A stretch of 64,000 nt of DNA from Clostridia bacterium (GCA_045650705.1 JAZRRK010000037.1:12151-76150), one strand, 5' to 3'; positions 1 to 26,640 are shown, counted from the stretch's first letter. Numbers and translations are program-made. Notes: generated by a model from the letters alone, not told the origin.

Positions 1-1011
1 ATAAGGTGTTCCAAATGCTCCCTGAGTTGTAATGCTCATAACACTATATTTTGAAACACATAATTTAGGATTTGAAAGTTTTAGAATTACTTTACTTACA
101 CCATCTTCATATTCTTGTGATATTATACTAGTTTCTAAATTTTCTACTTTTATTTCTGTAATATTTTCTCCTGATGGATTATGAATATTACATGATATTG
201 TTGCTTCATTTTCGTTTTGTTCTAATATTTCTATTGATAATAAATCTGCTAGGTCACTATCTTCTACTTCTGGAAGTGGTATATATTCCTGCCTTGGCAT
301 TACTTCTGGCATATTTATATGTGGATAGTATCCCTTACTTACTAATTCATCTACATTAAATTCTCCACCATTTTTATTTAGTACTTGGTTTTGAAAATTT
401 GTATCCCAAAGTGCTAACATACTTGTTTTTTTACTAACACTATTAGTAAAAGTTTCATCACAAAAATAGTAGCAATTTTCTACAGTTCCACTAGCAGAAC
501 TTACTGTGTTTGGTCCTTTTGTGAATTCTTCCCAGTTACCAATTCCAACAGAATATGAATTTTCTAGCTTTAATCCTGAAGCAACCAGATATACCAAATT
601 GGCAATTTTCTCATTTACACCATCTTGTTTTAATGTATTTATAGAAGCTAAAGTATATACATTCTTTACTGTACCTTTTACGTAATTCTGTCCAGTTATA
701 ACAGATACTTCTCTAGTTTGCCCTTCTGCTAATGGCATTATTGCTTCAATATTTTTTCCATATACATATCCATTTTGGATTGTACCTCTGTTATATCTAC
801 ACACAGCATATAAATGATTGGCTCCATATATTGGTTCTTTCATATTAATTACAAAGTTTTCTATTATTCCTGTTGCCCCATTCATCCAGCCAAATAAATT
901 TATTTCTGTATTAGAAACAGCATTACTTTCTATCAAATTAATCTGTATATTTCTCAAGACCCCATTATTTTCAGCAAAAATTCCGATAGAAGTTTGTAAC
1001 TTCATTTTCAT
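1..1011 (-). CDS. Continuation of the giant surface protein (beta-helix-like repeats). Open to the window edge and in a different frame from 971..4495.
   Basis: My own minus-strand translation from ~1011 down to base 1 gives about 335 codons without a stop (..SIGIFAENNGVLRNIQINLIESNAV..NLFGWMNGATGIIENFVINM..GYYPHINMPEVMPRQEYIPLPE..GAFGTPY). It is absent from the ORF track because it runs off the window. Its repeat unit continues the LFNRIGEQGIVENLVYDI unit at the C-terminus of 971..4495. Confidence 0.7.
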   Translation of the reverse strand, partial: MKMKLQTSIGIFAENNGVLRNIQINLIESNAVSNTEINLFGWMNGATGIIENFVINMKEPIYGANHLYAVCRYNRGTIQNGYVYGKNIEAIMPLAEGQTREVSVITGQNYVKGTVKNVYTLASINTLKQDGVNEKIANLVYLVASGLKLENSYSVGIGNWEEFTKGPNTVSSASGTVENCYYFCDETFTNSVSKKTSMLALWDTNFQNQVLNKNGGEFNVDELVSKGYYPHINMPEVMPRQEYIPLPEVEDSDLADLLSIEILEQNENEATISCNIHNPSGENITEIKVENLETSIISQEYEDGVSKVILKLSNPKLCVSKYSVMSITTQGAFGTPY

Positions 1012-4000
1012 TGTTTAATTTTATATCATATACTAAGTTCTCTACAATACCCTGTTCTCCTATTCTGTTAAAAAGATATCTACTACTCTTAATATCTCTT
1101 ACAAGAGTATGTCCATTAAAATCTAAAACTCCATGCCATTGTGCTCCAGTAAGACAACATGCTCTCCCAGTAAAGTCTAAATCATTTACTACTATATAAT
1201 GTCCATATGGCTGAATCTCTAAAAATTCTTCTTCGTTTGATATTGCTTTTATTTCGTCTTCTTTTTTTATCTCTAGTTCGTAATAATCTAAGGTGTAATA
1301 TCTATCTCTTATTTTTACTAAAAGCTCTATACGGCAAGTTGTTCCTTCTTTTAAATTAGAAAAAGTTTTTATTGCATTTTCTACTTTATGATTTTCGCCT
1401 ATTTCTTCATAACGTTCTTCTTTTATTAGATTATTATTTTCGTATATTCTTATATAATAATCATTTGTTACAATTTCTTGTTTTTTATCTTCTAAGTTTA
1501 CTGACACTTCTAATTCTCTTTGATATGCAAATTCTTCATATCTTGTTTTTTTATCTCCCAGTTCTATCTGTACATTTTTCAGGTTTAGTCCGTAATTTGA
1601 ATTAACCACATTGAAACCTACATACCCTGTTTCATCTACTTGTAACGTGTATTGGTATTCTTTCCATTCGGTATTGCTTAAGTTTGTTATTCTTGTATAA
1701 TTTTGATTTATAGCCTCTTTGCCATTTTGTACCCATATATAATAACTATCTACTTCTCCTAATAACATTGCACTAAATGATAGCGTAACAGTTTGTCCTG
1801 AATATTCTCTTAAGTCATACACGTAATGTTGGTTACCTGTTATAGTTAAAATTCCAGTTTCAGCATTGTATTCTTTTGTATAAGCTCCTTGACTATTAAA
1901 CAAAGAACGGCTTACCCAATTTACTTCTGATGCTACATTTATTAGGTTTTTTCCTGTTCCTTTTTTACTTACAGAATGTAATTTTAGTTCTCCATTAATT
2001 CCCATTTCTGTTATAACTTCTTCTCTGTATATCTCATAGTTTTGCTCGTATGTTGAGTTATCGCTTCCTTCATTGTATTGATCTGCATAATATGCTATTG
2101 TATATGTTTCATTTTCTTCTAGTTTATTATATTGTTTTCTTTCGTATTCTCCATTTGTTTTTATACTTTCTAATATTATAATATTATTTTTTCTATCTCT
2201 TATTTCTAATCTAACACTATTTGTTAGTACTGCTCCATCTTCATCTTGTATTTTTACATCAAAGTCTATTATTTCTCCTGTTACAAATTGATTTTTTATT
2301 AATACTTTTGCTGGTTTCTTCTTAGTTATAAAACTATTTCCTGTTTGTTCTTCTTCTGCTTGTTCCTCTACACTGCCCTGTTTTATTCTTGTATTTATTT
2401 CATAGTTATATTCTGTATTAGAGTTTAAACCTGTTAGTTCTTGCAATATTATTTCTTCTGCTTTTATTTTTTCTTTATCTAAAGATTTGTTATAAATTAT
2501 ATTTTCTTCTTTGTCTTTTACTATTAACTCTATATAATCTATAAGTTGTATCAATCGTTTATCTGTTTTCATTTCATCTATTTGTATTGATAACACTGCT
2601 CGATTTGGCTCTAATTCTGTTATTGCTGTATTCCAATATAGGTTGCCTAAAGATGCTAGTGGCATTGTTGTAAATGTAGCTTCTCCTATTTTATTATTTC
2701 TTCTTATCCCTTTTTCGTCGTCTAAATCATAATCTGCATAAAAGCATATTCTATAATATCCATTGGGGTCTAGGTCTGTTCTCGTTATTTCTTTATCTTT
2801 TTGTTCTAACTTTCCTCTTATTATTTCTTGTTTATTGTCTAATATAACATAATAATAATTTTCTAGTTTTACATTGTCTTTATTATCTAATTTAATTGTC
2901 ATTTCTGTTATATGTACTTCTTGTGTTTTCATTTGTACTCTTACACTTGGTATAGCTTTTGATGTTCTTGTTTTTCCTTTTCCGTTTTCTACTTTTAATT
3001 CATTTCCTTGTTTATCATATATTTGAATTTTATATGTTACTTTTTGGTCTGATTTTACAGTTTCACTTGTTTTGTAGTTAATAGTTTCTCCATTTTTTAG
3101 CTTATTTATATCGCTATTACTTAGTTTGTATTTTATTCCATCTATTTCTATCTCTATTTTTGATATTCCTTTTACTACTTCATCATTTATATCGTTTCCT
3201 ATTTTGAAGTTCTTTATTTCTACTTTGTTTGAATATATCTCTCCTGGTTCATGCTCTAGCTTTATACTTCCTAAATCCTTTATTGTTCCTGTTTTTATTT
3301 TGCCTTTATAGAAAGTTTCTTGTACTTCTTGGTTTTGTTCGTTGTAATATTTATATTGTCCTTCTATTTCAAACTCTGTCTCTGGAACTAGTCCTGTTAT
3401 TTCTAATATTCCACTACTTAGTATTTGTCTTCTTTGATATGTTTTGTTGTTCCTTGTTACTACAAATATTGCCTCAGTTATTCTTCCTTGAGGATCATTT
3501 ATCTGAATATTTGTTTTTGCTGTATATACTCTTGCTTCGAATTCTTCTGCTGTTATTGTTGGTCTTATATAGGCTTGTTCTCCACTTTCTCCTTCTGAAC
3601 CTTCATTTTCTGTGCCTTCACCTTCTATTGCTCCTCCTACACTATTTCCCCCTGTACTTCCTTCTACACCTTCAGTTGCTTCATCATCTTTTTCCTCTTC
3701 TGGTTTTGTTTGTATTTCTGGATTCTCTTCTATTATTCCTAATTTCTTTAGAAAGTCTTCATAGCTTATTTCTTCCATTGTTTCTATTGCTACTTTGCTA
3801 TTTCCATCTATTTCTAATATATTATTATATATTAATTTATCTTCTTCTACTTCATAATATGTTATGTACTCTTCTGTGAAATATATTATGCTATTTACTG
3901 GTATTACATACTCTCCTATTTCTGTTTGTATCTTTATTTCTTTTGTTGTTACATATGTTCCTTCACCTGTTTCTAACAATATGTATTCATTGTTATCTGC

Positions 4001-4495
4001 TTTACTTAAATCATGGGCATTGTACAGCTTTCCTTCTGCTAACATAAAGTTTTCATAGCCTTCTACTTTTTCATAATTTCTTGTTATTATATTTGCATCT
4101 TCTGAGATGTTTAATAGAGCAGATTTTCCATTTACGTATATTGGATAAACTATATCTATATTCTTTTTTTCTTTTCCACCCACATAATAACTTTTTCTCT
4201 TTTCATAGATTGTTTCCTGTTCTTCTACTTTTATTAATGGAATTGCTTGTTCTGCGCTCTCGAAATTTTCACTTTTTAAGTTTTTTGTTACTATTTTTGC
4301 TTCTATTCCATATCCTTCATACATTATTGTACTTATTGGCGCATAACGAAGAGCCATATAATAAAATATTATTAGGATGGCACATATGAGTATAAGCCCT
4401 CCTAATAAAAATATTGGCATATGATTTCTATTAATTTTATTTTCTTTTTTATTATTTCCTTTTTTTATCTTTTCTTTTTTTCTAGATTCTTTCAT
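971..4495 (-). CDS. Giant N-terminally membrane-anchored surface protein with FN3-like repeats, then a beta-helix (GLUG/Zmp-related-like) region.
   Basis: 1174-aa ORF. Lys-rich N-terminus followed by one TM helix (IFLLGGLILICAILIIFYYMAL). An acidic G/E/S linker. Repeated ~90-100 aa units with GLxPxTEY-type motifs. The C-terminal FTGRA..GAQWHGVLDFNGHTL..IGEQGIVENL pattern is typical of parallel beta-helix adhesin or protease-associated domains. The ORF ends at TGA 971-973, but the protein evidently continues in another frame. Confidence 0.75.
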   Translation of the reverse strand: MKESRKKEKIKKGNNKKENKINRNHMPIFLLGGLILICAILIIFYYMALRYAPISTIMYEGYGIEAKIVTKNLKSENFESAEQAIPLIKVEEQETIYEKRKSYYVGGKEKKNIDIVYPIYVNGKSALLNISEDANIITRNYEKVEGYENFMLAEGKLYNAHDLSKADNNEYILLETGEGTYVTTKEIKIQTEIGEYVIPVNSIIYFTEEYITYYEVEEDKLIYNNILEIDGNSKVAIETMEEISYEDFLKKLGIIEENPEIQTKPEEEKDDEATEGVEGSTGGNSVGGAIEGEGTENEGSEGESGEQAYIRPTITAEEFEARVYTAKTNIQINDPQGRITEAIFVVTRNNKTYQRRQILSSGILEITGLVPETEFEIEGQYKYYNEQNQEVQETFYKGKIKTGTIKDLGSIKLEHEPGEIYSNKVEIKNFKIGNDINDEVVKGISKIEIEIDGIKYKLSNSDINKLKNGETINYKTSETVKSDQKVTYKIQIYDKQGNELKVENGKGKTRTSKAIPSVRVQMKTQEVHITEMTIKLDNKDNVKLENYYYVILDNKQEIIRGKLEQKDKEITRTDLDPNGYYRICFYADYDLDDEKGIRRNNKIGEATFTTMPLASLGNLYWNTAITELEPNRAVLSIQIDEMKTDKRLIQLIDYIELIVKDKEENIIYNKSLDKEKIKAEEIILQELTGLNSNTEYNYEINTRIKQGSVEEQAEEEQTGNSFITKKKPAKVLIKNQFVTGEIIDFDVKIQDEDGAVLTNSVRLEIRDRKNNIIILESIKTNGEYERKQYNKLEENETYTIAYYADQYNEGSDNSTYEQNYEIYREEVITEMGINGELKLHSVSKKGTGKNLINVASEVNWVSRSLFNSQGAYTKEYNAETGILTITGNQHYVYDLREYSGQTVTLSFSAMLLGEVDSYYIWVQNGKEAINQNYTRITNLSNTEWKEYQYTLQVDETGYVGFNVVNSNYGLNLKNVQIELGDKKTRYEEFAYQRELEVSVNLEDKKQEIVTNDYYIRIYENNNLIKEERYEEIGENHKVENAIKTFSNLKEGTTCRIELLVKIRDRYYTLDYYELEIKKEDEIKAISNEEEFLEIQPYGHYIVVNDLDFTGRACCLTGAQWHGVLDFNGHTLVRDIKSSRYLFNRIGEQGIVENLVYDIKLNNENEVTNFYRNFC

Positions 4496-4512
4496 CTGTG
4501 TTGCCTCCCCTT

Positions 4513-5223
4513 CTATTTCTCAAACTCAAAACTTCGTAATATTTCTATTTTCTTTAATAATAATTGTTCTTTTTCTTGATATTTTAAAGAATCTGTACTT
4601 AAGTTTATTTCATACGCCTCAGTTTTTGCAGTTACATCTCCATAATTTGCTTCTTCTATGATTGTATACTTATCCTCTTGTTTTTGATATATTTCTACTG
4701 TTTGTCTATATGAAACTATGGCATATGAAAGTCTAGATAATTCATACGTTTGTTCTCCTACAGTTAGTGTAACAGGCTCTAAAAAAATGTATAAGTCATT
4801 TCCATCAAATAAGAATGAATTTCTTACTTGCTTTTTATATCCCTCATATTGTATATATGGAATATTATCTTCTAATTGCACCGCTGAAAAATGGTTTACT
4901 CTTTGCATATTACCTTCATCTACAGGAAATACTATTGCCATATCTTCTGGCAATAATAATTTGTTTTCTATATCTTGATAATATATTGGTGTACTATCTA
5001 ACTCAATTTTTACATCTTCCATCTGTAAATTTGTTATACCATTATTTTGTTTGCTTATTTCTAAATTTCCTTTATATTCTACTCTTCTTCCACCAAAGTA
5101 TTGATAAAATTGATGTTCTTCTAGTTTATTAGTATTTAAATTTGAAATATATTTTGCTATAATTACAATTACTGCCATCATCACAAAAACAAATATTATT
5201 TTTATAATACCATCTTTTTTCAT
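4513..5223 (-). CDS. Membrane-anchored protein of unknown function (single N-terminal TM).
   Basis: 236-aa ORF with N-terminal TM IIKIIFVFVMMAVIVIIAKYI. Its start overlaps the upstream ORF by 4 nt, and it ends 17 nt before the giant gene. Confidence 0.6.
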   Translation of the reverse strand: MKKDGIIKIIFVFVMMAVIVIIAKYISNLNTNKLEEHQFYQYFGGRRVEYKGNLEISKQNNGITNLQMEDVKIELDSTPIYYQDIENKLLLPEDMAIVFPVDEGNMQRVNHFSAVQLEDNIPYIQYEGYKKQVRNSFLFDGNDLYIFLEPVTLTVGEQTYELSRLSYAIVSYRQTVEIYQKQEDKYTIIEEANYGDVTAKTEAYEINLSTDSLKYQEKEQLLLKKIEILRSFEFEK

Positions 5224-5514
5224 CTTTTCATTCTCTTTCCTCTCTTTTTAGGTTTTATTATATCTTCTACATTTTTTAAGAAGAAGTACATGGCATATAA
5301 TGTTACAAACATCATTAATGCAATTTCTACTTGTAATATATAGTTTTCATTGCTTATTTCTACTCTGTAGCCATGAAGAATATCTACAAAGTAAATTATA
5401 GTGGATTGGGCTATTATATTAATAGTTTCAAATATTGCTTTTCTAGGTGTTAATATTACATAAATTATTCCTGCTGTTATTATCATAACTATCATTGCTT
5501 CTATATTAATTTGA

Positions 5515-5537
<23 letters not shown>
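5220..5537 (-). CDS. Small polytopic membrane protein, unknown function.
   Basis: 105-aa ORF with a GTG start, about 3 hydrophobic helices and a Lys/Arg-rich C-terminus. It overlaps both neighbours. Confidence 0.45.
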
Positions 5538-8168
<2,631 letters not shown>

Positions 8169-8172
<4 letters not shown>

Positions 8173-9512
8173 CTATTTTCCTCACCTAACTCTTTAAATT
8201 TATCAAGGATTTGTTTCTCAGAAAGTGGGCAATATTTAGGTTGTTTAAGCTCTTCTTGTATTTTTCTTCCTTCTAGCATTTTTCTTCTTAGTTCTGGACT
8301 CATTTCATCCATATTTGCAAGTTCGTATACTTCTTTAGTTTCTAAGTAGCTTAGGAATTTTCTTCTTACACTTGCTCCTAGCTTTTTCATTTTTTCGTTT
8401 TGTACTGCTCCTCCAAGTCTTGATACTGATACTCCATAGTTTATAGCTGGTTTTTGACCTTTACTGAATTCTTTTTCAGAAAGCACTATTTGTCCATCTG
8501 TAATTGATATTATGTTTGTTGAAATATAATCTGTTATATCTCCACCTTTAGTTTCTACTATTGGTAATATTGTGATTGAACCACCATTTTTATGTTGACA
8601 TCCTTTTTCTAATAGTCTCGAATGTAAGTAGAATATATCTGCTGGATATGCTTCTCTACCTGGTGTTTTTCCAGATATCAAGCTTATTTCTCTGTAGTTA
8701 TCAGCATGTGCTTTTAAGTCATCTATAACTACTAAGACATCTTTTTTCTTATTCATATATTCTTCTGCAATTGATAGCCCTACATATGGAATTAAGCTTA
8801 TTACCGGTGGAGTATCATCATTTGTTGCTACGCACATCATTGTATATGATAATGCATTTCTTTTTAATAATTCATTATATATGTTTCTTATTTCTTTCTT
8901 TGTTTTTCCTACTGCAATATATATACATACTGTATTTTCACCATATTCTTTTCTTATTACACCTTGATTTACAATAGTATCTAGAGCTATTTGTGTTTTT
9001 CCAGTCTTTTTATCTCCTATTATTAATTGTCTTTGACCTTTTCCAATAGGATACATTAGGTCTATACCTGCAATTCCTGTTAACATTGGTCTACATACGT
9101 CTCTCCTATCCATAATAGGAACAATTGGGTTTTCTATGTTTATATATGTTGTTTTTTCAAAACTACGACCAGTTAATAAATCTACTCCGAATAAGTCTGT
9201 TATTCTTCCCATTGCTTCTGGTGCGAAAATTGCTTTAAATTGTTCACCTGTTGAACTTACAGTATCGCCAACTTGAATTGGTGCATATTGTTTAACAATA
9301 GCAATCGTTACAGACTCTTCTTTTATTTGGTTAACATATCCCATTGCTTTTTCCCAAATTGTTACTTTTTCAAAAAAAGATACATTTTCTAATCCTGATA
9401 CTTCGATAATGTAATCTTTTACGCTTATTACTTTCCCTGCTTCAAATACGTTTTGGTCATTTTTAATTTGCTCTATTTTTTTACTTATTAATTCATCAAT
9501 ATGTGTACTCAT
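8169..9512 (-). CDS. atpA: F1 ATPase alpha subunit (divergent, short).
   Basis: 447 aa. Walker A GDKKTGKT (canonical GDRQTGKT), PGREAYPADIFYLHSRLLEK, ISITDGQIVL, VSVSRLGG (arginine-finger region). Confidence 0.88.
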
Positions 9513-9523
9513 TTTTTCTTCTC

Positions 9524-10354
9524 CTATATACTATAATCATACATTTTTCCTTTGTAGTGTATAATAACACCCTCTGACATGTTTTTGTAAAAGTATGTTT
9601 TTATCTTTGGGTCTAAATTATCATATTTTAGGTCTTCTCTACCTATATATATATAGATAGTTGGATCTATTCTTTTTATTCTTTCTTGTAATTTTTCTAT
9701 TAGATTTCTAATTGTAAATTGACCTTTGTGAATTTTGTTTCCGTCTATATTTATCCATTTTCTTTCTTCTTCTGTTAAAACAGATTGTACTAATTCATAT
9801 TGGTCTTCTTTTGATAATGTTGAACATTCATATAATATTTTTTTATTAAATTGATTACAAAAATCTACCAATACTTTATATTCTTTTTCATCTTCATTTG
9901 TTTTATGCTCTGTTATAAATTTTTTTATTGTTTCTTCAATGTCTAAATTGAATTTTTTCTTTAATTGTTTATAATTGCTAAAGAAAGATGCTTCTTTATA
10001 TTGCGGAGTTGGAATATCATATATAACTTCCGGCCTCCTTGGAATCTCTTTTTGTATGCCTTTATATTCTCTCATCTTTGCTAGCACTTCTTCTATTTTT
10101 TCGCTGAATATTTCCTCTGGTGCATTTTGTATTTGCTTTGTTGAATTTAATTTTCTTTTTTCTTCTTCAATTTGCTTTCTTAGGCTTTCTAATTCATTTT
10201 CCTTTTCTTCTACTAAATAGTTATACTCTTGTAACTTATCTAAAAACCATTTTTTCGCACTTTGATTTATTCTTTTTATAACATTATTAAATATGAATAC
10301 TGAAAATCCAAGCATTATAATTACAATTACTATATTTGCTATGATTATTTCCAT
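9524..10354 (-). CDS. Peripheral-stalk-like protein (b-like TM plus coiled coil, with an extra C-terminal domain that may be delta-like).
   Basis: 276 aa. N-terminal TM IIIANIVIVIIMLGFSVFIF followed by a charged coiled coil (EEKENELESLRKQIEEEKRKL). It sits between c and alpha, where atpF-atpH lie in canonical operons. Confidence 0.5.
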   Translation of the reverse strand: MEIIIANIVIVIIMLGFSVFIFNNVIKRINQSAKKWFLDKLQEYNYLVEEKENELESLRKQIEEEKRKLNSTKQIQNAPEEIFSEKIEEVLAKMREYKGIQKEIPRRPEVIYDIPTPQYKEASFFSNYKQLKKKFNLDIEETIKKFITEHKTNEDEKEYKVLVDFCNQFNKKILYECSTLSKEDQYELVQSVLTEEERKWINIDGNKIHKGQFTIRNLIEKLQERIKRIDPTIYIYIGREDLKYDNLDPKIKTYFYKNMSEGVIIHYKGKMYDYSI

Positions 10355-10380
10355 TTTTTACGCTCCTTTTAGCTTTTGTT

Positions 10381-10629
<249 letters not shown>

Positions 10630-10639
10630 TTATCCTCCT

Positions 10640-12085
10640 TTAATAATTTTTTGCTTTTGCTTGTATATTAATTTGTATTGCTTTACCATCAAATTTTGCA
10701 TTTTCTATTTTTAAAATTATGTCTTTTCCATAATGATAATCTAAACTTCCTGTCCATCCAGCCGTTGTGGCAGATTTTTCTAAATCAACCTGTGTTCTCT
10801 CTTTTGCTTCGCCATCAACATATAAAACTATTTCTGCCTCATCTATGTTTTGATTTTTATCTAAAATTAATTCAAAATAGATTTTTGTTAATGTTATTTT
10901 TGTTATTTTTAATGTTGATGTTACTTTTGTTGTTCTCGCTGATGTAATGTCTTCTATACTCTCTTCTAAAATTCCCTCATCATTTATTTGTTTTGTTCCT
11001 AAAGTAATTTTGTATTCTTGATTCTGATTCAAACCAGTAATTCTATATTTGTTTTCTTGTTTATCTAATGCTATTGTTTTTGCAGTTCCTGCTCCATCTA
11101 CTAACAAGTATACTGTTTGATATTTATTTTCTGGATCTATAACATTGTATTCTACATCTATATATGTTGAACCTGTGCTTGTCCCTCTCAATTGTACACT
11201 CTTTGCAAGTTCCGTCTTTTCTGTTCCATTATTATCTGTTTCTATATTTATGTTAGTATTGTTTTGCTGATTATTAATTGTTGTATTATTGTTAATTATT
11301 GTACTTTGATTATTTGTAGTAGTACTTTGATTGTTTGTAATAGTGCTTCCATTATTTATAACCGTACTTTGATTGTTTGTAGATTGAATTATCGTTGCAG
11401 GTTCTTGTTTTTCTTCTGGTTTTACATATTGGTTTGTACTTCCTATAATTTTCTTTAAATCGATTTCTTCATCATTATAAATCAATTTCTCGTTTGCCAC
11501 GTCAAATTTAAATGTTTGTGTATTAATTACCATTGGCTTTATTGTTCTAGAATTTAGTTCATTATTTAATAAATATGTATTTCCTGCTTTATCTATTAAA
11601 ACTAACAAATACCCTGTTGTACTTAGTGAGCCTGTTTCATTTGTAATGGTGTTTCCTATTACTATATATTTTCTATCTCCTAGTTTGTATAATTGGTCTT
11701 CTGATGTTTTTGATATTGTAGTATTTTGTGTTAGTTTTGCAACAGCTCCATCTGTATAAATACGATACATTTTTCCATATAAATTAACTGTTTTTGTACT
11801 TTCTTGATATGCTACACATTGTGTTCCTAATTTGTATTCTTCATTTGTATCGTTTGTCTTTAAATAATAACTGCCTGTCCACTTTTTTTGTATAGTAGCC
11901 TCTTCTTCTAATTGTATTGGGTTATATTCTTCATCATAGAGAAAGTTATCGCTTTCTATTATATACTCTTCTTTTGGCATTTTTAGTACCATACTCAAAC
12001 ACCAAATTAATATGGCAATAATTCCTATTATGATTATTGTGAATATAGCAAACGATTTCTTATTGCCTGCCGTTAACTTTCTCAT
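10640..12085 (-). CDS. Membrane-anchored surface protein with an N/Q/S/T-rich linker and FN3-like C-terminal domains.
   Basis: I place the start at ATG 12085 (MRKLTAG..) behind AAGGAGG. The ORF-track start at 12121 overlaps the upstream gene. TM helix FAIFTIIIIGIIAILIWCL. GLNQNQEYKITL is an FN3-type motif. The stop lies 13 nt before the c-like gene. Confidence 0.65.
   Translation of the reverse strand: MRKLTAGNKKSFAIFTIIIIGIIAILIWCLSMVLKMPKEEYIIESDNFLYDEEYNPIQLEEEATIQKKWTGSYYLKTNDTNEEYKLGTQCVAYQESTKTVNLYGKMYRIYTDGAVAKLTQNTTISKTSEDQLYKLGDRKYIVIGNTITNETGSLSTTGYLLVLIDKAGNTYLLNNELNSRTIKPMVINTQTFKFDVANEKLIYNDEEIDLKKIIGSTNQYVKPEEKQEPATIIQSTNNQSTVINNGSTITNNQSTTTNNQSTIINNNTTINNQQNNTNINIETDNNGTEKTELAKSVQLRGTSTGSTYIDVEYNVIDPENKYQTVYLLVDGAGTAKTIALDKQENKYRITGLNQNQEYKITLGTKQINDEGILEESIEDITSARTTKVTSTLKITKITLTKIYFELILDKNQNIDEAEIVLYVDGEAKERTQVDLEKSATTAGWTGSLDYHYGKDIILKIENAKFDGKAIQINIQAKAKNY
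11225..11392 (-). repeat. Imperfect tandem repeats encoding the NNQST-type low-complexity linker.
   Basis: gtactttgattgtttgt-like units recur at least 3 times. The protein reads QSTNNQSTVINNGSTITNNQSTTTNNQSTIINNNTTINNQQNNTNIN. Confidence 0.6.
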
Positions 12086-12101
12086 GATTTTTTCCTCCTT
12101 A

Positions 12102-15100
12102 TTATGTTCCTGTGTATACATATTCTACTGTTGCTGAATCTATTATTATTTCTCCTTTTTCTGCGTCTTCTTTTATGAATTGTATTTCTATATGATAGAT
12201 TCCATCTTTTATAATATTTTCTTCTAATGTATACATATAATATTTTTCTTCTGATGCTGTAATAACTCTTGGTACAAATTCTACTGTTCTACTAGATAAA
12301 TATCCACTTGTATTATAAACAGAGTATCTTACCTTATCAATTTCTTCTAATTTATAGCTTTCTGTGAACCTTAAGTCTATTTGAGCTTCATCTTTTTCAT
12401 TTGTAAGTGCTACAATTTTTCCTATTGTGATTCCATATTCATTTGTTGATAATACTATGCAGTCTTTAGTTAGTTGTTTTATGTTTGTATTTTTATTTTC
12501 ATAATCTAACTCTACAGCTACTCTTAATGTATATTTTCTATTTAAATCTACATTCTCTATTGTAAATTTTTTATTAATCTCATCAATGCTGTATGTTCTA
12601 TTTTTTACTTCTTCTGGTGTAATATCATTTTGCTTATCATCTAGTATTGTAACTTTATAATTATTTCCTACAATCATGCAATCTTCATCATAAATTGTTA
12701 TTCTATATTCAATATTGCTTTTTTCTCCATTTAGTACTCTCTCTCCTCTAATTGCAATTACTGGTTCTTCTAGTTCTTCTAAATAAAACTCATGTGTTTT
12801 CTTTCCTAGTTCCAACTCTATCTCTTCTCCTGATACATTTGTAACATATGCAAGTGGAATTATTTCAATCTGATATTTTGCACCAAAATCAATTATACTT
12901 CCTGGATTTACTTCTAATGATTTTTGCATTTCTTCATTAAATATTCTGTCATCTGGTATTTCAATTGCTATTTCCTCATATTGTTGTGTTTCTTCATTGT
13001 ATTTTGTTAAACGATATTTAATCACATTATATCCCATTGTTCTACCTAACTTGTAATTTATGTTTATTGATTTATTTTCATAATCTTCTGGAACATATTC
13101 TACGTTTATGTCACTTATTCCTACATCTGTTAGTGTTGAAAAATAATACATTTTTCCTATTACTTCATAGTCAATATCATACAAATATTTTTCCTCTTCT
13201 ATATAATTTCCTGTTTCTTCATTATACGATTTTAAGATTACCCTTAATTGCATTCCGTAATATGTTTTTGGTGATAAGTTCTCTATTACTATTGCACTAC
13301 TAAAATCTGATAATTTTTTTTCTATTGTTTTTACTAGTACTGGATTAGCACCAGTCTCAGTAGTTTCAAATAAATCAATATAAATTTTATTATCTTTAAT
13401 CTCTGTTTTTCCATCTTTGATAATATTGGCTTGCATTGTAATTCTAGAAAGCTCTGATGTGATTCTTAAATTTCCATTTTCGTCTATCAAGCTTATTCCT
13501 GGTATTATCTCTTCAAATTTTATTATATTATCTCCTATATGAGTAAGTTCTGTTTCATATACTTCTTTTTGTAATATTGTTCCATATTCATATAACATTC
13601 CTTTTTCACTATATTGTAATGTAATGTTATTTTGATATTTACTATTTACTGCATTAATAATACTTATCTGATTTGGTGCTGTGTCTGGTTCACGATAATA
13701 TAAACTTCCCATTGTAGAAGTATTCTCTACAAAATTACCTTCATTATTTAATGTGTAATAGTATCCTGCTTCTGAACTTAAGCAAGCTTTCTGATAAATT
13801 ACATATTCTGATGTTGCGTCATATCCAACATGTCCACTATCATAGTAAGCCTTAACTAAAACTTCTGTTTCTTTGTTAAGTAAGTTTCCAATATCGTTAA
13901 AATTAACTGTTAAATTATTACTATTTGATAATGTTTTTAAATCTGATACGTATCTTGTACTTCCATCTGTTGCATTTAGTATTACTTGGAATGCTGCTAC
14001 TTTCTCAATGTTTGATATATTAAATGTACTTCCTGAACTATCTTGTATATTAATAACTATACGATTACTATCTAAAGATACTTTATATTTTAGGTTTGAA
14101 ATATCATTTTCTTGTTCAAAGTATTCTTGTATTAGTATATTTTCTTTTGATGTAGTATCTTTCATTACTGATTGTTCTACACTAATCTTTAAATCACCAC
14201 TATATAAGTTACTAAATGTTATTGTATTAAATTCTCCTTCTGCAGTTTCTTCTATTTCTTTTGCATCCACAATCTTATTGCCAATTACTGCAACCATTTC
14301 ATTATTAGTTAGAGCATTATCCACATCTTTTAATTGATATTTATATGTTCTTGTATTATTTGTAGAGCTTGATGGGTATAGTATAATTTGAGCCATTTCT
14401 TTCTCTGGTGATACTGTAACTGATTTTAAAACTACTTTTTCACCTTCAATATATGGTGGATAATATATATCATCAATTTCTCCATTACCATCTAAATCTA
14501 CTTCTATTTCATATGTAAAATAATATTTGTTACCCCTTGCTAATCCGTCTTCATCTATAATATCTTTAGCAGTTCCTTTTCCAACATTAAATGTTGCTAC
14601 TGGAATAATTCCATCTTCGCCTACTTCAATTTCGATAACTTCAACTTCTTTATTTGTTGTAGCATCTATCGCACGATATCTTACTTTCTTAGCATACCCC
14701 CCACTATTGTCATATTTTGCCTGTACACGATATCCTACTACTGTACTACTTTGTAATTCTTCAGATGGTGTATCACTATTATAATTTCTTATTGGCTCTA
14801 CGACTAGTGCATCATCTGGATCAGACGGCAAATCAGGCATATATCCATTTGTTTTAATAACAAACATAGATTGTATTATTGGTATCTCATTTTCATATTC
14901 TGTATAATCATACGCATTTGAGACTGTAATTGTATAGTATTCATCTCTGAAATCTTCGTTTTTTGCTCCAAAGAACGCTGGTGTAATTTCTATTGATTCA
15001 TCATAATAGTTAGCTTTTAATTCACTGACATATGGTTCTATATTAGTATCCACAACCTTTGTAGTTCTTCTTAGAGTTCCTTGTGGTACTTCTCCTTCTG

Positions 15101-17474
15101 GTGTCTGCCCTGAATAAATACTAAATACCATTCCTGTTAATGTTTGTGCTTCTAACTCTTCTCCTTCTTCATTTTCTGAAGACAACTGAAATTTTATGTT
15201 AAAAGTATTTTCTATATTTTCTGTTTCTTGTTCAAAATTTGCAACTAAATTTTCTGGTTCTTTTGTTTTAACAATTACACCACCAATATAGCATTTATCA
15301 ATTGGTTCATTTCCATCTTTTAAATCAACTGTTCCATAAACTGCAAATTTGTAAGTTTCATTTGCCCTTAAATTATTTACTGATACTGGTATGTTTAGTG
15401 ACCCTTGTGATGTAAAAGTTTCTGTTTTTCCTACTGAATCTGTATATGTTACATGTAAAATGCTATCATCTTCAAGTTGTATTGTATTATCGTTGTCTTC
15501 AATTACTATTGTACCTTCTATTCTTTCAAATGTTATTTTCTCTTCTTCAAAGCTTACTGTTGGGAATACTGCACCATCCATTCTCATTTGTGCACTATAT
15601 TCGCTTTCATATTCGCAGATTTTCTCATTATCATCGAAAATTGCAACAACCTTATATGTATAAGCCACATTTCTTATAATTGTTTCATCTATTGGAAGTT
15701 CTATTTCTGTTTTGTCTGATTCTACTACTTTTACTGGTGTTTCATTTAGCATTCTCATATCATAAATTTCATATCTATAGCTTGTAATACCAGAGTGTTC
15801 ATCTTCTACATTATTTATCTTTAAAGTAAATTTCCCATCCCTTTTATTTGTTTCATACTCTGTTCCACTAATTACTGGTCTATTTTTTAGTGTAGTGTGG
15901 TATTGTGATATATCAAATCCATTTACCAATATTTGACCATTGTATAATACATTTGTTAATCTTACTTCATATTTTGTGTTAGGATCTAAGTCTTTAAATT
16001 CTACGTTTACCTCACTACCTTTTATTATGCTCTCATTTATAACGTCTTGTGCTTGTAGTTCTTGTCCATCTTCTGTCAATATTTTAACCTCTGCTCTTGT
16101 AATTCCAGAGTTTTCTTCAAATTTTACTTTAAAGCTCATACTCTTGTTGGTAAATACGTCTTTTTCAAAACTTACACCTGTTATGTTCGTTCTGAATTGT
16201 TTGTATATAAAATTCTTTTGATATACTATATCTTCTACTTGATAAGCTGATTCTACTTGCATAATGTATTCTGTATCTGGCTCTAAACTTTGTACGTCTA
16301 ATTCTATTTCATATTCTCCTAAAGCATATTGTGTTTCATATACTGTTTTTCCTGTTGCTACTCTTATAATTTTTATGTTTGTATCACTTTTTAATAATGC
16401 TTCTTCATCTGTTATTTGTAAACCTGCTGTTACTCCAGTTGTAGTTACTTCAAATTTCGTTACTTTAATTTTTGGAGTTTTTATTGTTTCTTCATTGTTG
16501 TCTACTATGTTTGAATTATCTCCACTTCCATTTCCATTTATTTGTGGTAAGTTTTCTTCATTATTATTTTGTTGCTGATTGTTTTGATTTATTGTTTGTC
16601 CATTATTTTCTTGTTGTTCATTATTTTGATTTATTGTATCTCCATTATTAGTTTGAGTATTGTTACTTCCATTATTTTGTATTATAACTTCTTGTTCTTG
16701 ATTTTCTTCTTCATCTTCTTCACTAAGATCTACTATTGTTACATTGTCGTCCGAATCTATTACCATATTTTCCAAGCTCATTTGATTTTCATCATTTTTG
16801 CGAACAATTTTACTTGCTAAATTCATTTCTATACCATCTGGCAAATATAAAACAGTTTCTTGTCCAATAGTCTGATATGTTATCTCTTGATTATATATTT
16901 TAATTATTTCATTATCTAAATATTCAAACTCTAGATATCCATTAATTGTCTTTTCTGTTCCATCTTCAAATGATATTGTTATATCCTTTCCTGCAATTAG
17001 ATATTTATTTGTATCAATCTTCCATAATGGATATGAAAAGCTTAATTGTTTATTTAGATTTTGAATTGTATATTTATCTCCAGATTTTGTTAAAGTTTTA
17101 TTAGCCAGAATATTATAGTAGAAAATCGGGTCACTTTCTATCTCAGTCAAATCTACCAGTACGCCATTTTTAAATGCACTAATTGAGCCATCTGTATAAT
17201 GAATAAAATTATTTTTGTTTGATATTACTTTTTCTCCATTTGTGTCTTCAAATGTTATTTGTTCATTATAGTTTTCTTTATACTTTTGCTCTCCGCTAAA
17301 GTAATATCTTTCTACATCATTTTCATTATCCAATTTACTTTGTAATATATATCCCGAATCCGTAAATGTTTTATATATTTTCTGCTCAACTTTCATTGCA
17401 TTATAAACTAAAATACTAGATAATACTAATCCTATTAATAAGATAATTAAAATATATTTTTTCATATGCTTCAT
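12102..17474 (-). CDS. Giant (1790 aa) N-terminally anchored surface protein made of many FN3/Ig-like repeats.
   Basis: TM helix YILIILLIGLVLSSILVY, a juxtamembrane region, an acidic then N/Q-rich linker, then more than 10 units of ~95 aa with LEPDTEY, LDPNTKYEV, LRANETYKF and LSPKTYYGM motifs. There is no LPXTG or other C-terminal anchor. Confidence 0.8.
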   Translation of the reverse strand: MKHMKKYILIILLIGLVLSSILVYNAMKVEQKIYKTFTDSGYILQSKLDNENDVERYYFSGEQKYKENYNEQITFEDTNGEKVISNKNNFIHYTDGSISAFKNGVLVDLTEIESDPIFYYNILANKTLTKSGDKYTIQNLNKQLSFSYPLWKIDTNKYLIAGKDITISFEDGTEKTINGYLEFEYLDNEIIKIYNQEITYQTIGQETVLYLPDGIEMNLASKIVRKNDENQMSLENMVIDSDDNVTIVDLSEEDEEENQEQEVIIQNNGSNNTQTNNGDTINQNNEQQENNGQTINQNNQQQNNNEENLPQINGNGSGDNSNIVDNNEETIKTPKIKVTKFEVTTTGVTAGLQITDEEALLKSDTNIKIIRVATGKTVYETQYALGEYEIELDVQSLEPDTEYIMQVESAYQVEDIVYQKNFIYKQFRTNITGVSFEKDVFTNKSMSFKVKFEENSGITRAEVKILTEDGQELQAQDVINESIIKGSEVNVEFKDLDPNTKYEVRLTNVLYNGQILVNGFDISQYHTTLKNRPVISGTEYETNKRDGKFTLKINNVEDEHSGITSYRYEIYDMRMLNETPVKVVESDKTEIELPIDETIIRNVAYTYKVVAIFDDNEKICEYESEYSAQMRMDGAVFPTVSFEEEKITFERIEGTIVIEDNDNTIQLEDDSILHVTYTDSVGKTETFTSQGSLNIPVSVNNLRANETYKFAVYGTVDLKDGNEPIDKCYIGGVIVKTKEPENLVANFEQETENIENTFNIKFQLSSENEEGEELEAQTLTGMVFSIYSGQTPEGEVPQGTLRRTTKVVDTNIEPYVSELKANYYDESIEITPAFFGAKNEDFRDEYYTITVSNAYDYTEYENEIPIIQSMFVIKTNGYMPDLPSDPDDALVVEPIRNYNSDTPSEELQSSTVVGYRVQAKYDNSGGYAKKVRYRAIDATTNKEVEVIEIEVGEDGIIPVATFNVGKGTAKDIIDEDGLARGNKYYFTYEIEVDLDGNGEIDDIYYPPYIEGEKVVLKSVTVSPEKEMAQIILYPSSSTNNTRTYKYQLKDVDNALTNNEMVAVIGNKIVDAKEIEETAEGEFNTITFSNLYSGDLKISVEQSVMKDTTSKENILIQEYFEQENDISNLKYKVSLDSNRIVINIQDSSGSTFNISNIEKVAAFQVILNATDGSTRYVSDLKTLSNSNNLTVNFNDIGNLLNKETEVLVKAYYDSGHVGYDATSEYVIYQKACLSSEAGYYYTLNNEGNFVENTSTMGSLYYREPDTAPNQISIINAVNSKYQNNITLQYSEKGMLYEYGTILQKEVYETELTHIGDNIIKFEEIIPGISLIDENGNLRITSELSRITMQANIIKDGKTEIKDNKIYIDLFETTETGANPVLVKTIEKKLSDFSSAIVIENLSPKTYYGMQLRVILKSYNEETGNYIEEEKYLYDIDYEVIGKMYYFSTLTDVGISDINVEYVPEDYENKSININYKLGRTMGYNVIKYRLTKYNEETQQYEEIAIEIPDDRIFNEEMQKSLEVNPGSIIDFGAKYQIEIIPLAYVTNVSGEEIELELGKKTHEFYLEELEEPVIAIRGERVLNGEKSNIEYRITIYDEDCMIVGNNYKVTILDDKQNDITPEEVKNRTYSIDEINKKFTIENVDLNRKYTLRVAVELDYENKNTNIKQLTKDCIVLSTNEYGITIGKIVALTNEKDEAQIDLRFTESYKLEEIDKVRYSVYNTSGYLSSRTVEFVPRVITASEEKYYMYTLEENIIKDGIYHIEIQFIKEDAEKGEIIIDSATVEYVYTGT
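16500..16690 (-). repeat. Tandem degenerate repeats encoding the N/Q-rich linker (NNGDTINQNNEQQENNGQTINQNNQQQNNN).
   Basis: ttgatttattgt.t.tccattatt units are repeated at the DNA level. Confidence 0.55.
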
Positions 17475-17525
17475 CCTTTTTTATGATTATTATATTTTTT
17501 ATACTTGTTTTTTTCCTTCAATTTT

Positions 17526-17555
17526 ATTATAATGTCGTTTTAATTATTATGTCAA
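17526..17555 (-). promoter_or_regulatory. SigA-type promoter of the giant-protein/ATPase operon.
   Basis: The minus strand reads TTGACA (17555-17550), an 18-nt spacer, then TATAAT (17531-17526). It lies about 50 nt upstream of the first ATG at 17474. Confidence 0.6.
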
Positions 17556-17907
17556 CATTTTTTTGACTTATTTTCCTTTCACTTTCTGGTACTTTTGGTG
17601 CATATTTCCTTCTCTATATTACAGTTCTTGTTTTAATTATGTAATATATTAACATAATTAAAAGAGTTAGGGCTTTGTTTTAATTTTTAAATTATTAATA
17701 TATGCCCCTTCACTCTAATATGTTAATTCTATTTATATTCTTCTGTAAACCGATTATGTCTACAGTTCCAACGCTTTCAGCATTTTCTGTTTTTTTATTA
17801 TACTATATATCATCTCTCTTTTCAAGCATTTTTTTACCTTTTTCTACAATATCTTTTCTTTCTTTATCCTTTTCGTCAGAGCTTTATTTTATTGTGTTTT
17901 TCATATA

Positions 17908-18189
17908 TTATAGATTTTCTTTTTCTCCGTTTTTTATATATTCTTTTTCATATTTTAATTTTGTTGCCATTCCTCCTCTTATATGTCTTTCTGCTTTGTT
18001 CTCGTCTAGAACCTGCCTTACTTCTATTGCTAATGCTTGGTTTATATGTATTAATCTTTCACTTACATCTTTATGTACTGTACTTTTAGAAACTCCAAAT
18101 TTTTTAGCTGCTCCTCTTACTGTGTCTTTTGAATCTATAATATAATGCGCTAAATTTACTGCTCTTTCTTCTATTGATATTCCTCTCAT
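17908..18189 (-). CDS. spoIIID: Sporulation transcription regulator SpoIIID.
   Basis: 93 aa. ..TVRGAAKKFGVSKSTVHKDVSERL.. and ..AERHIRGGMATKLKYEKE closely match the SpoIIID HTH and C-terminal basic region. Confidence 0.9.
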   Translation of the reverse strand: MRGISIEERAVNLAHYIIDSKDTVRGAAKKFGVSKSTVHKDVSERLIHINQALAIEVRQVLDENKAERHIRGGMATKLKYEKEYIKNGEKENL

Positions 18190-18253
18190 TTTAAAACCCC
18201 CATACGAATACTTTTTGTTTAAGTGTATTCGTATTAGGGTTGGATTATGATAT

Positions 18254-19100
18254 CTAAATCATATCCATATATTTTTTTGTCTCCTTATATCCTAATTCAT
18301 ATAAGTAGTCTATTTTTGTATAATCTAATAACTGAACATCTTTGGTTTTTAAGCTTAATATGCAATCTGCTCCTTCCATTTCATAGTTAGATAACTCTTG
18401 GCATAAAATTTGCATTGAATTTTCTACTACTTCTATAATATTTTTTTCTTTTTTATTGCTTCGTTCTTTTTGAAATTTTATGCATAATACTTTGTCTGCT
18501 CCATTTTCTTTTGCTACTTTCCACGGAACATTTTCCCTTATTCCACCATCGATTAACTTTGTGTTTTTGTAGTCGCAAGGAGAAAATAGACCTGGATAGC
18601 TACAACTCGCCCTTACTGCCTTTCCTATATTAATATTATTTTCGTATATAATTTCATCTGAATATGTATTACGTTTATTCACTGAAGAGAAAATATATAA
18701 CGCTCCTGTATGTAAATCCACACTAGGAATTAATAATGTTTTTTTTATTTGATTTATATTATATATACCTTTTTTATGTGCTGCTTCATTAATTATTTCC
18801 TCTATTATCTCCCCACTGTTTAACCCATCAATAATAAGTGTTCTTTTTATAATTATTCCAAATATTGCTTTTACTATATTTTTTACATCTATGTATTTTA
18901 TTTTCTTACAATATTTTTTAAAAAGTTCTAAAATTTCATCTGAGTTATATCCGCATTGTATTTAAGCTGGCCACAATACTTCCAGAAGATGTTCCAGATA
19001 TTATGTCATATTCTATATTCTTTTCTTCAAGTGCTTTTAAAGCTCCTATATGAGCAGCACCTTTGACTCCTCCACCTGCTAAACAAATTGCTAATTTCAT
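18254..19100 (-). pseudogene. Patatin-like phospholipase gene with a frameshift.
   Basis: ATG at 19100 gives MKLAICLAGGGVKGAAHIGALKALEEKNIEYDIISGTSSGSIVASLNTMRI-stop, with the oxyanion GGGxxG and GxSxG motifs. A second frame continues QCGYNSDEILELFKKYCKK..LLIPSVDLHTGALYIF into the 155-aa ORF 18254..18721, which carries the DGG catalytic Asp motif (LIDGGIRENVP). The frames break near 18955-18970. Confidence 0.75.
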
Positions 19101-21530: not shown

Positions 21531-22265
21531 TCATTTTCCAATAAACATTTGAACATATATTTTTCCATATTTTGGGCTATTAACTACTGCTAATCCTGTG
21601 TAATTATAATTATTACTTAAAATATTTGCCTTATGCCCCTCAGAGTTCATCCATGCCTTTACTGCTCCACTATTACTAGAATTTCCTGCAATATTTTCTC
21701 CAGCAGCTTTATATGTTATTCCAAAGCTCTTCATCATGTCAAAAGGAGAACCATATGTTGGAGAGTTGTGTGAAAAATAATTATTATCAACCATGTCCTG
21801 TGCTTTTGCTCTAGCAACATTTTGTAATTCTGCATCTATTTTTAGGGCTGATAATCCTGCAGAAGTTCTCTGTGCATTTATTAAATCGAAAGTCTCTTGT
21901 TCATCAGCAGTTAGTCCATTGCTATTTGTTTGTCCTGTTGTGTTATTCTCTGTTGTTGTTTCAGATTTTGTTGGATAAATTAATCTTACATATGATTTAC
22001 TTACCATACCAATATAATCTTTATCTGTCTGTATTACATACCAATCTCCAATTTGAGCAAATATTCTTACATATTCATTCTTATATACCATTGTTACTAC
22101 TTTATAATTTGTACCTGGTCCTTGTCTAACATTTAGTCCAGATGCTGTTACTATACCAGTTGTTGTTCCAACTGTTTGATAATGTGTCATTGCAGTTGAT
22201 ATATTTGATGTGAATAATATCATAATAAGTAAAACTAAAGAAATTATAAGTTTTTTAATTTTCAA
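21531..22265 (-). CDS. Secreted SH3b plus CAP/SCP (YkwD-like) domain protein.
   Basis: Signal peptide, an SH3_3-like segment GLNVRQGPGTNYKVV..GDWYVIQ, and a C-terminal CAP domain (FSHNSPTYGSP..GENIA..WMNSEGHKANIL). Confidence 0.8.
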   Translation of the reverse strand: MKIKKLIISLVLLIMILFTSNISTAMTHYQTVGTTTGIVTASGLNVRQGPGTNYKVVTMVYKNEYVRIFAQIGDWYVIQTDKDYIGMVSKSYVRLIYPTKSETTTENNTTGQTNSNGLTADEQETFDLINAQRTSAGLSALKIDAELQNVARAKAQDMVDNNYFSHNSPTYGSPFDMMKSFGITYKAAGENIAGNSSNSGAVKAWMNSEGHKANILSNNYNYTGLAVVNSPKYGKIYVQMFIGK

Positions 22266-23969: not shown

Positions 23970-23982
23970 AACAATTCCCCCC

Positions 23983-26579: not shown

Positions 26580-26640
26580 TACTATTCACCTCATCTCTTT
26601 TTAATATTTTAGGCAGATTTGCATCTGCCTAATTCATATT

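Follow-up and report, generated by a model that had tools for sequence, protein, structure and literature searches.

An F1-like ATPase operon linked to giant surface proteins in gut Bacillota: a divergent family that appears to retain the motor without the ion path

F1-like ATPases performing work other than ion-coupled ATP synthesis have been described as mycoplasma-specific, and the type 2 (gliding) and type 3 (MIB-MIP) enzymes work with surface proteins. In the type 3 system, ATPase activity is required for MIB-MIP function and the seven-gene cluster encodes a protein with 12 transmembrane (TM) segments, a cytoplasmic one of 19 kDa and a third of 87 kDa that combines a signal peptide with two TM segments, while c-like and delta-like proteins are absent. 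The type 2 ATPase of Mycoplasma mobile has no peripheral-stalk gene, its alpha is devoid of the H1 helix, its beta bears a long N-terminal extension, and GliD is hypothesised to be a derivative of a b+delta fusion; for the origin of the gliding motor, the current idea is a chance contact between F1Fo and an adhesin (PMC11864180). Here, we analysed a stretch of 64,000 nucleotides (nt) from a Clostridia bacterium (GCA_045650705.1 JAZRRK010000037.1:12151-76150), hereafter the window, in which a previous sequence-only reading had recognised an F1 ATPase core sharing an operon with giant membrane-anchored proteins. That reading named the mycoplasma enzymes as the only precedent, which matches the literature, and no published description of the present family was found in the literature searched.

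The operon occupies positions 1-17555 of the window on the minus strand and forms a tightly packed block of 11 genes in the order G1, P493, c-like, b-delta stalk, alpha, gamma, beta, epsilon-like, s180, P236 and G2. From its sequence, this block probably encodes an ATP-hydrolysing F1-like rotary motor that is uncoupled from ion flow and acts on surface proteins. It would represent a large, previously undescribed family of F1-like ATPases in gut Bacillota, in which the motor was kept and the ion path was lost. Related loci, designated by L-numbers, were obtained from a scan of species-representative genomes that returned 80 of them with 56-93% alpha identity, and presence counts refer to the 48 loci with full flanks.

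The alpha, beta, gamma and c-like proteins matched F-type models of Pfam and NCBIfam. Alpha scored 409-430 bits on the atpA models of NCBIfam, below their cut-offs of 484 and 554, and gamma scored 65.6 bits on TIGR01146 for a cut-off of 194. Beta passed the atpD cut-off narrowly (471 vs 463 bits), being the sole subunit among the three to reach an equivalog cut-off. On the same models, E. coli controls scored 869 bits for alpha, 875 for beta and 377 for gamma, so that the alpha and gamma scores represent about one half and one sixth of the control scores, respectively. Judged by these scores, the three proteins are genuine F1 subunits that have diverged strongly, and the F1 part behaves as its own lineage against the NCBI curated models. 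The closest sequences in the PDB are canonical F1 subunits from Bacillus, Caldalkalibacillus and Fusobacterium, and the G1-beta protein of M. mobile matched the window beta less well in the same search (322 vs 389 bits).

The catalytic motifs of alpha and beta, on which the core had been considered functional, are all present and conserved in the family. The arginine finger of alpha (SVSRLG) was found in 58/58 relatives, while the Walker A of beta and its GxGERSREG motif were each found in 69/72; the DELSEED-like motif was kept by only 16 of the 72. Walker A, the catalytic Glu and the arginine finger are, according to these alignments, under selection across the family. From its residue 4 onward, alpha aligns with the canonical protein starting at residue 7, and it covers residues 7-435 of the 502-amino-acid (aa) Bacillus alpha. 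It keeps the N-terminal helix, which binds delta in canonical enzymes, and its C-terminal domain is about 65 aa shorter than the canonical one. In several lineages of Bacilli metagenome-assembled genomes (MAGs; L034:9962-13234, L024:3938-6889, L026:9989-12526 and 12 other loci), alpha bears a C-terminal extension of about 75-650 aa, which begins at the site of the missing canonical C-terminal helices. In L034 and L046, this extension is of low complexity; that of L034 is strongly acidic and rich in repeats, and that of L046 has a more mixed charge.

In the window, the gene located directly after beta encodes a 98-aa protein, which is conserved at this place in 48/48 full-flank loci. It had been interpreted as an epsilon subunit reduced to its beta-sandwich; the gene is indeed in the epsilon position, whereas no homology was detected by Pfam scans of each member, PDB-profile search or hhalign against the E. 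coli subunits. By eye, a weak motif resemblance to epsilon was observed. The protein is thus designated epsilon-like from its position and size.

The membrane sector departs strongly from that of an ion-translocating enzyme. The c-like hairpin passed the Pfam ATP-synt_C cut-off and remained below the own cut-offs of all NCBIfam c models. As had been noticed in the window, its helix 2 is devoid of an ion-binding carboxylate: no Asp or Glu was found there in 65 of the 66 unique relatives. The position 18 residues past the loop Pro, which is the canonical Asp/Glu ion site, is occupied by Ala in the window and by A, T, S or N in the relatives. The GRNPE[TV]K loop, on the side facing gamma and epsilon, is invariant and the GxGxGxG helix is kept. 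The C-terminal Asn-Pro of the c-like protein was considered as a family-specific external contact, and this idea was dropped because Na+-type c subunits, e.g., that of Ilyobacter tartaricus, likewise combine an R-x-P-E loop with a C-terminal NP.

No match to subunit a (ATP-synt_A, PF00119) was obtained for any operon protein or for 34 homologues of s180, and no subunit-a homologue was found by PDB-profile search, hhalign or tblastn. Two small polytopic proteins had been listed after epsilon; the DNA alignment with the closest relative (L005) and the other relatives indicate instead one gene of about 180 aa with five TM segments, s180, that is interrupted in the window by a 1-nt insertion (ACACGG vs ACAGG in L005). 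In 71 loci, the homologous gene is intact and encodes 163-231 aa. The prediction for s180 gives five hydrophobic segments, and the positive-inside charges suggest an N-out/C-in orientation, which is the topology of E. coli subunit a. Therefore, the absence of a subunit-a homologue stands, but the claim that no open reading frame (ORF) of the operon had such a topology was too strong. Many s180 sequences contain an Arg in the second hydrophobic segment, which is not conserved, and the s180 alignment displays no invariant residue, and hence no invariant Arg. The identification of s180 as subunit a was rejected for want of a homology signal and of an invariant Arg, the likeness in topology being noted. 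Because the c-like protein is devoid of the carboxylate, no subunit a was found and the s180 Arg is not conserved, ion translocation by the known mechanism can be considered as excluded as far as sequence can tell. This supports the proposal that the complex is not an ion-driven synthase.

The peripheral stalk would be provided by a 276-aa protein. Its AlphaFold2 (AF2) model is composed of a helix (residues 2-76), whose first part is the TM segment, and, beyond a disordered linker, of a bundle of helices (residues 121-229) and a four-stranded sheet. When this model was compared to the PDB with Foldseek, delta/OSCP proteins accounted for 20/20 of the top matches, including mycobacterial b-delta fusions, the best match being E. 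coli delta (6oqr_W, E 4.6e-3, probability 0.97). Searches for sequence relatives gave no significant match with Pfam, PDB profiles or hhalign, and 2/35 members had a weak OSCP match. From the delta/OSCP matches of the model, the 276-aa protein is likely a b-delta fusion-like peripheral stalk associating a TM helix with a delta/OSCP fold, which agrees with its initial description as a b/delta-like stalk. Such a stalk fits the retained N-terminal helix of alpha, and a stator would be needed only if something rotates.

The remaining genes encode four surface proteins, namely G1, P493, P236 and G2. As previously stated for these four, each of them has a single N-terminal hydrophobic helix, and so does the stalk protein. 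The module of about 200 aa that follows the membrane in G1 was recognised by hhalign in P493 (97%, E 1e-10) and in G2 (92.7%, E 4e-7), and the module of P236 matched the N-terminus of G1 at 85%. According to these profile alignments, the four proteins share a related membrane-proximal module and are paralogous. The description of P236 as an anchored protein of 236 aa was correct: it is composed of a TM helix and an all-beta module, whose AF2 model (predicted local distance difference test (pLDDT) 90.6, predicted template modelling score 0.83) comprises about 21 strands. Structure searches of the PDB and BFVD with P236 gave no relative (best E about 0.1, template modelling score below 0.2), and sequence searches gave none either.

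In G1, P493 and G2, a low-complexity linker rich in N/Q/T/E separates the module from the distal domains. Arrays of fibronectin-III (FN3)-like units had been proposed in these largest proteins, and they are partly detectable. An iterated hidden Markov model (HMM) retrieved at least five units of about 85 aa in G1, four immunoglobulin (Ig)-like units in G2 and one unit in P493 (residues 318-384). The Pfam fn3 model itself stayed just under its cut-off on G1 (24.9 vs 25), and the strict LxPxTxY motif occurs three times, only in G1, for which no sequence relative was found in the PDB. Apart from this borderline fn3 match, the operon proteins other than the F1 and c-like subunits matched no Pfam or NCBIfam family. 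The frame of G2 ends at position 971 and resumes in another frame to base 1, while its homologues, of at least 1600-2135 aa (lower bounds, the fetched flank ending inside the gene), read body and tail in a single frame. G2 was said to end in a beta-helix region; its homologues do carry GLUG motifs around residue 1650, whereas the tail visible in the window had no Pfam match, similar repeats being seen there by eye. The disordered linkers and the Ig-like arrays would let the surface proteins cross the cell wall peptidoglycan.

The association of the ATPase core with these proteins is widespread. A metagenome-wide search retrieved at its top alpha-like proteins of 437-463 aa that are 72-92% identical to the window alpha. 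The carriers are uncultured gut Clostridia (e.g., Ca. Merdicola), Bacilli MAGs, Lachnospiraceae including strain AM93-12TA, and MAGs labelled Mollicutes, Tenericutes or Mycoplasmatota. With the profile of the stalk protein, which is a system-specific marker, 472 clusters at 50% identity were obtained, 283 of them at E <=1e-10. The core order from G1 to P236 given above is kept in about 80 loci, and one clade has a permuted order (G1, P493, P236, c, stalk, alpha, beta, epsilon-like, s180, gamma). Among the full-flank loci, stalk, gamma and beta were present in 48/48, like the epsilon-like gene, c-like in 47/48, G1 in 41/48, and P493 and P236 in 39/48 each; by tblastn, a G2 homologue was located directly after P236 in 26/52 loci. 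In the Lachnospiraceae Ca. Merdisoma sp. HCP28S3_D10, the series reads 2345, 597, c, stalk, alpha, gamma, beta, 96, 172, 238 and >3929 aa; the giants of the family reach >3900 aa (L086). The same layout was found on a 1.57-megabase metagenomic contig. This recurrence across genomes supports a non-accidental linkage between the ATPase core and the giant surface proteins.

Several variants of the locus were observed. A clade composed of L053, L052, L055, L059, L071, L073 and L082 is devoid of G1, P493 and P236, and its core reads c, stalk, alpha, beta, epsilon-like, s175 and gamma. Its neighbours (L053:8234-8968, 14183-18902) encode an anchored protein of 244 aa and a coiled-coil protein of 278 aa, together with a set of five paralogues of 210-260 aa, whose signal peptides resemble by eye the TasA/SipW type (e.g., GATFAYFSA). 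In L087 (8969-20786), there is no c-like gene, and an integrase-like gene is found upstream in place of G1 and P493; the stalk, alpha, gamma and beta genes are kept, together with genes for 134-aa and 197-aa proteins followed by a giant of >2219 aa. An extra co-directional giant gene (3638 aa) is located upstream of G1 in L001 (1-1468), and also in L002 and L011; no similarity of this giant to G2 was detectable.

Considering these data, a mechanism can be proposed for an ion-uncoupled motor. ATP hydrolysis would turn gamma, the epsilon-like protein and the c-ring against the b-delta stator. As neither proton nor sodium ion would be carried, the torque, or a conformational cycle, would reach the four surface proteins by way of s180, the TM helices and the beta-modules next to the membrane. 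These proteins would then move or change conformation cyclically, as in adhesion and release, a gliding-type motion or the resetting of a binding protein, which would parallel the gliding (type 2) and MIB-MIP (type 3) ATPases of mycoplasmas. A mechanical, assembly or secretion output, as proposed previously, is suggested by gene linkage alone. A more specific version is conceivable but rather doubtful. In it, the c-ring would be a purely mechanical, ion-independent rotor driving a wall-spanning apparatus of the four proteins, two of them giants, for motility or active adhesion, and the family, of free-living type, would be ancestral or sister to the ATPases that serve gliding and MIB-MIP in mycoplasmas.

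Several points weigh against the proposed motor. The tie between the ATPase and the surface proteins is one of synteny only, and the giants are not universal: the 7/48 full-flank loci without G1, which form one clade with 57-59% alpha identity, keep the core with other neighbours, so that the giants are not obligatory partners. The delta-fold matches of the stalk are modest, with an E value of 4.6e-3 at best and template modelling scores of 0.26-0.40, and no search supports the epsilon assignment of the 98-aa protein. The present data also give no account of how a ring turning within the lipid bilayer could set single-pass proteins in motion. Finally, s180 and G2 are frameshifted in the window, and the locus could be inactive in this genome.

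Among the other explanations, the one that survives best is an export or assembly motor, in which ATP would be used to secrete, insert, wall-thread or assemble the giants in the manner of FliI/FliH/FliJ. The subunits b-delta, beta and gamma are homologous to FliH, FliI and FliJ of type III export, which speaks for this alternative. Furthermore, the giants are huge (1790 aa to >3900 aa) with disordered linkers and may need help, and the synteny fits it as well as it fits a motor acting on surface proteins. However, all four surface proteins have ordinary N-terminal anchors that are compatible with the Sec pathway, and no homologue of the export gate was detected in the operon by Pfam scans. The full rotary layout is also kept, with an alpha/beta heterohexamer, gamma, a c-type rotor and a stalk, i.e., two distinct subunits instead of a homohexamer, and the FliI and SctN models gave at most 236 bits against cut-offs of 380-715, far under the scores of the F1 models. 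Hence, we regard an export motor as unlikely.

A divergent but genuine ion-translocating ATPase or synthase would require an unconventional c site, s180 as a shrunken subunit a, and giants co-located for some other reason. The passage of beta just over the atpD cut-off, the five hydrophobic segments of s180, whose charges suggest the orientation of E. coli subunit a, and the Arg found in the second segment of many s180 sequences could be taken as traces of such an enzyme. Yet the acidic helix-2 residue of c is missing in all but one of the relatives and the equivalent position is variable, the s180 Arg belongs to no invariant column, none of the four approaches to ATP-synt_A (Pfam, PDB profile, hhalign and tblastn) gave a signal, alpha and gamma fall far under the equivalog cut-offs, and the giant genes are syntenic across classes. 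We therefore consider this possibility as very improbable. A decaying relic or a chance adjacency, i.e., a remnant of an atp operon among surface-protein genes, is hardly credible. Two frameshifted genes in the block and the loss of the c carboxylate and of subunit a would suit it, but it is contradicted by hundreds of lineages in which the catalytic motifs and the gene order have been conserved. Moreover, s180 and G2 are intact in close relatives, and the frameshift of an unrelated neighbour suggests a sequence error.

Regarding the organisation of the block, its ORFs are all co-directional and run head to tail from position 17474 to beyond base 1, as first reported; their number is 11 instead of twelve, s180 having been counted twice owing to its 1-nt insertion. 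The junctions consist of overlaps of 4-23 nt, as reported, or gaps of 1-26 nt; the upper limit of 20 nt given for the gaps is exceeded between c-like and stalk (26 nt). The proposed TTGACA-N18-TATAAT promoter was found with a perfect consensus, inside the 430-nt gap that follows spoIIID; sites of this type occur in this AT-rich DNA at chance frequency (127 seen vs 121 expected). A search for terminators that would split the block gave no convincing internal prediction, and an Rfam search of the 5' region (17300-18300) gave no RNA element. The coordinates are collected in Table 1.

Table 1. Features of the F1-like ATPase operon and of its genomic context, with positions in the window.
Feature	Position	Strand	Description or basis
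G1, giant of 1790 aa	12102..17474	-	TM 8-26, ~200-aa membrane-proximal module, N/Q/E-rich linker, Ig/FN3-like array
P493, anchored G1 paralogue	10640..12121	-	TM 24-42, module, N/Q/T-rich linker, 1-2 Ig-like domains
c-like hairpin, 81 aa	10381..10626	-	Pfam ATP-synt_C 30.8 bits, cut-off 24
b-delta fusion-like stalk (probable), 276 aa	9524..10354	-	AF2 model (pLDDT 77) and Foldseek
F1 alpha-like, 447 aa	8169..9512	-	PF00006, E 1.5e-71
F1 gamma-like, 260 aa	7390..8172	-	PF00231, E 9e-26
F1 beta-like, catalytic, 452 aa	6030..7388	-	TIGR01039 471 bits, cut-off 463
Epsilon-like, 98 aa	5741..6037	-	Assigned from position and size
s180, ~180 aa, 5 TM	5220..5754	-	ORFs of 79 aa and 105 aa in the window, from a 1-nt insertion
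P236, minimal anchored module	4513..5223	-	TM helix and all-beta ectodomain
G2, giant, >1500 aa visible	1..4495	-	Runs off base 1; frameshift near 985-1000
Promoter-like TTGACA-N18-TATAAT	17526..17555	-	12/12 consensus; ~50 nt before the G1 start
spoIIID	17908-18189	-	Mother-cell sporulation regulator; directly upstream of the block, co-directional
spo0A	42998-43825		

The host, whose G+C content is about 28%, belongs to an endospore-forming lineage, as indicated by the presence of spo0A and spoIIID and in agreement with its description as a spore-former. A link between spoIIID and the operon was rejected, the SpoIIID motif being absent from the flanks of all other loci, and so was the identity of the block as a defence system, for which PADLOC gave no match. 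Just outside the operon, a patatin-like phospholipase gene (18254-19100, minus strand) is split by a frameshift, its N-terminal part (MKLAICLAGGGVKGAAHIGAL...GTSSGS) lying in a different frame from the remainder. As this neighbour is unrelated, the frameshifts of s180, G2 and the patatin-like gene are probably assembly indels rather than decay, although they could also suggest a decaying genome. Further upstream, a secreted-type protein with SH3_3 and CAP (cysteine-rich secretory protein) domains is encoded at 21531-22265 (minus strand). The region 22635-28824 (minus strand) contains four co-directional genes for proteins of 451, 423, 442 and 727 aa, to which no function was assigned. The 442-aa protein has a Peptidase_C39-like domain and the 727-aa protein is glycine-rich with a weak match to type IV secretion system (T4SS) pilin, and this gene run may belong to an element for conjugation or secretion.

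If the more specific version, with a purely mechanical c-ring, were true, uncultured gut Bacillota would possess a widespread surface motor of a kind new to bacteria, and the family would be the missing intermediate between F1Fo and the F1-like X0 enzymes. The family shows the state expected of a possible intermediate: the rotor protein and a fused stalk are kept, the ion site and subunit a are gone, and the giants are in the operon. The carriers are abundant, host-associated gut bacteria about which little is known, and the system may account for some unexplained activity at their surface. Two named carriers, Lachnospiraceae bacterium AM93-12TA and Ca. Merdisoma sp. HCP28S3_D10, are apparently cultured, which would open the system to genetics and cryogenic electron microscopy.

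Compared with canonical F1Fo enzymes of Firmicutes and Fusobacteria, the order c, b/delta, alpha, gamma, beta, epsilon is that of atpE-F-H-A-G-D-C. In contrast to these enzymes, the c carboxylate, subunit a and atpI are all missing. A single polypeptide replaces the separate b and delta, the C-terminus of alpha is shortened by the stretch mentioned above, and the epsilon-like protein has neither the C-terminal helices nor a detectable homology. The canonical b and delta/OSCP stalk is encountered here at the level of the predicted fold only, as one probably fused protein. The N-ATPase models TIGR03305, TIGR03324, TIGR03323 and TIGR03322 gave 421, 354, 30 and 21 bits against cut-offs of 752, 750, 282 and 131, respectively; unlike in N-ATPases, no subunit a is present in the operon, and its small proteins match no NCBIfam model. 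The stalk protein resembles the mycobacterial b-delta fusion (7nkd_d and 7njn_d among the Foldseek matches) by joining a b-like TM helix and a delta fold in one polypeptide. However, the mycobacterial enzyme is a proton-coupled synthase with a subunit a, a second b and a carboxylate-bearing c-ring, and no sequence similarity with its fusion protein was detectable.

The comparison with the mycoplasma enzymes revealed both likenesses and differences. As in M. mobile type 2, F1-derived alpha, beta and gamma with intact catalytic features would serve a use other than synthesis together with giant surface proteins, and the b-delta fusion-like protein modelled here recalls the hypothesis made for GliD. 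Unlike in type 2, the system has kept a membrane protein of the c type, a stalk with a TM anchor and the N-terminal helix of alpha, beta (452 aa) does not have the N-terminal extension of about 300 aa found in M. mobile, the giants are encoded in the ATPase operon, and the hosts include walled spore-formers. The models glide_MMOB1660 and glide_MMOB1670 gave 382 and 391 bits, respectively, for cut-offs of 600 and 850, while the E. coli subunits gave 412 and 495. With type 3, the system shares an F1-like core, a non-canonical membrane sector without subunit a and a genetic link to surface proteins. It differs by its scores on MSC_0618 and MSC_0619 (405 and 300 bits for cut-offs of 570 and 520) and, going by the published descriptions, by an X0 in which c-like and b-delta are joined by s180 with its five TM segments and by the four single-pass paralogues; no likeness to MIB or MIP was seen in Pfam scans of the operon proteins. 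On the N-ATPase, type 2 and type 3 models alike, the window subunits scored no higher than those of E. coli. A special affinity to the mycoplasma types was rejected on the basis of the NCBIfam scores with their E. coli control, used in place of a reference tree.

Overall, leaving aside the stalk at the fold level and the epsilon-like protein, this system does not display the features by which canonical F1Fo, N-ATPase and the type 2 and type 3 enzymes of mycoplasmas are defined, as far as they were tested. By its catalytic residues, its absent ion path and its linkage to surface proteins, it would belong to the class of F1-like ATPases uncoupled from ion translocation. By analogy, it would work most like the mycoplasma F1-like X0 enzymes, but with a different X0.

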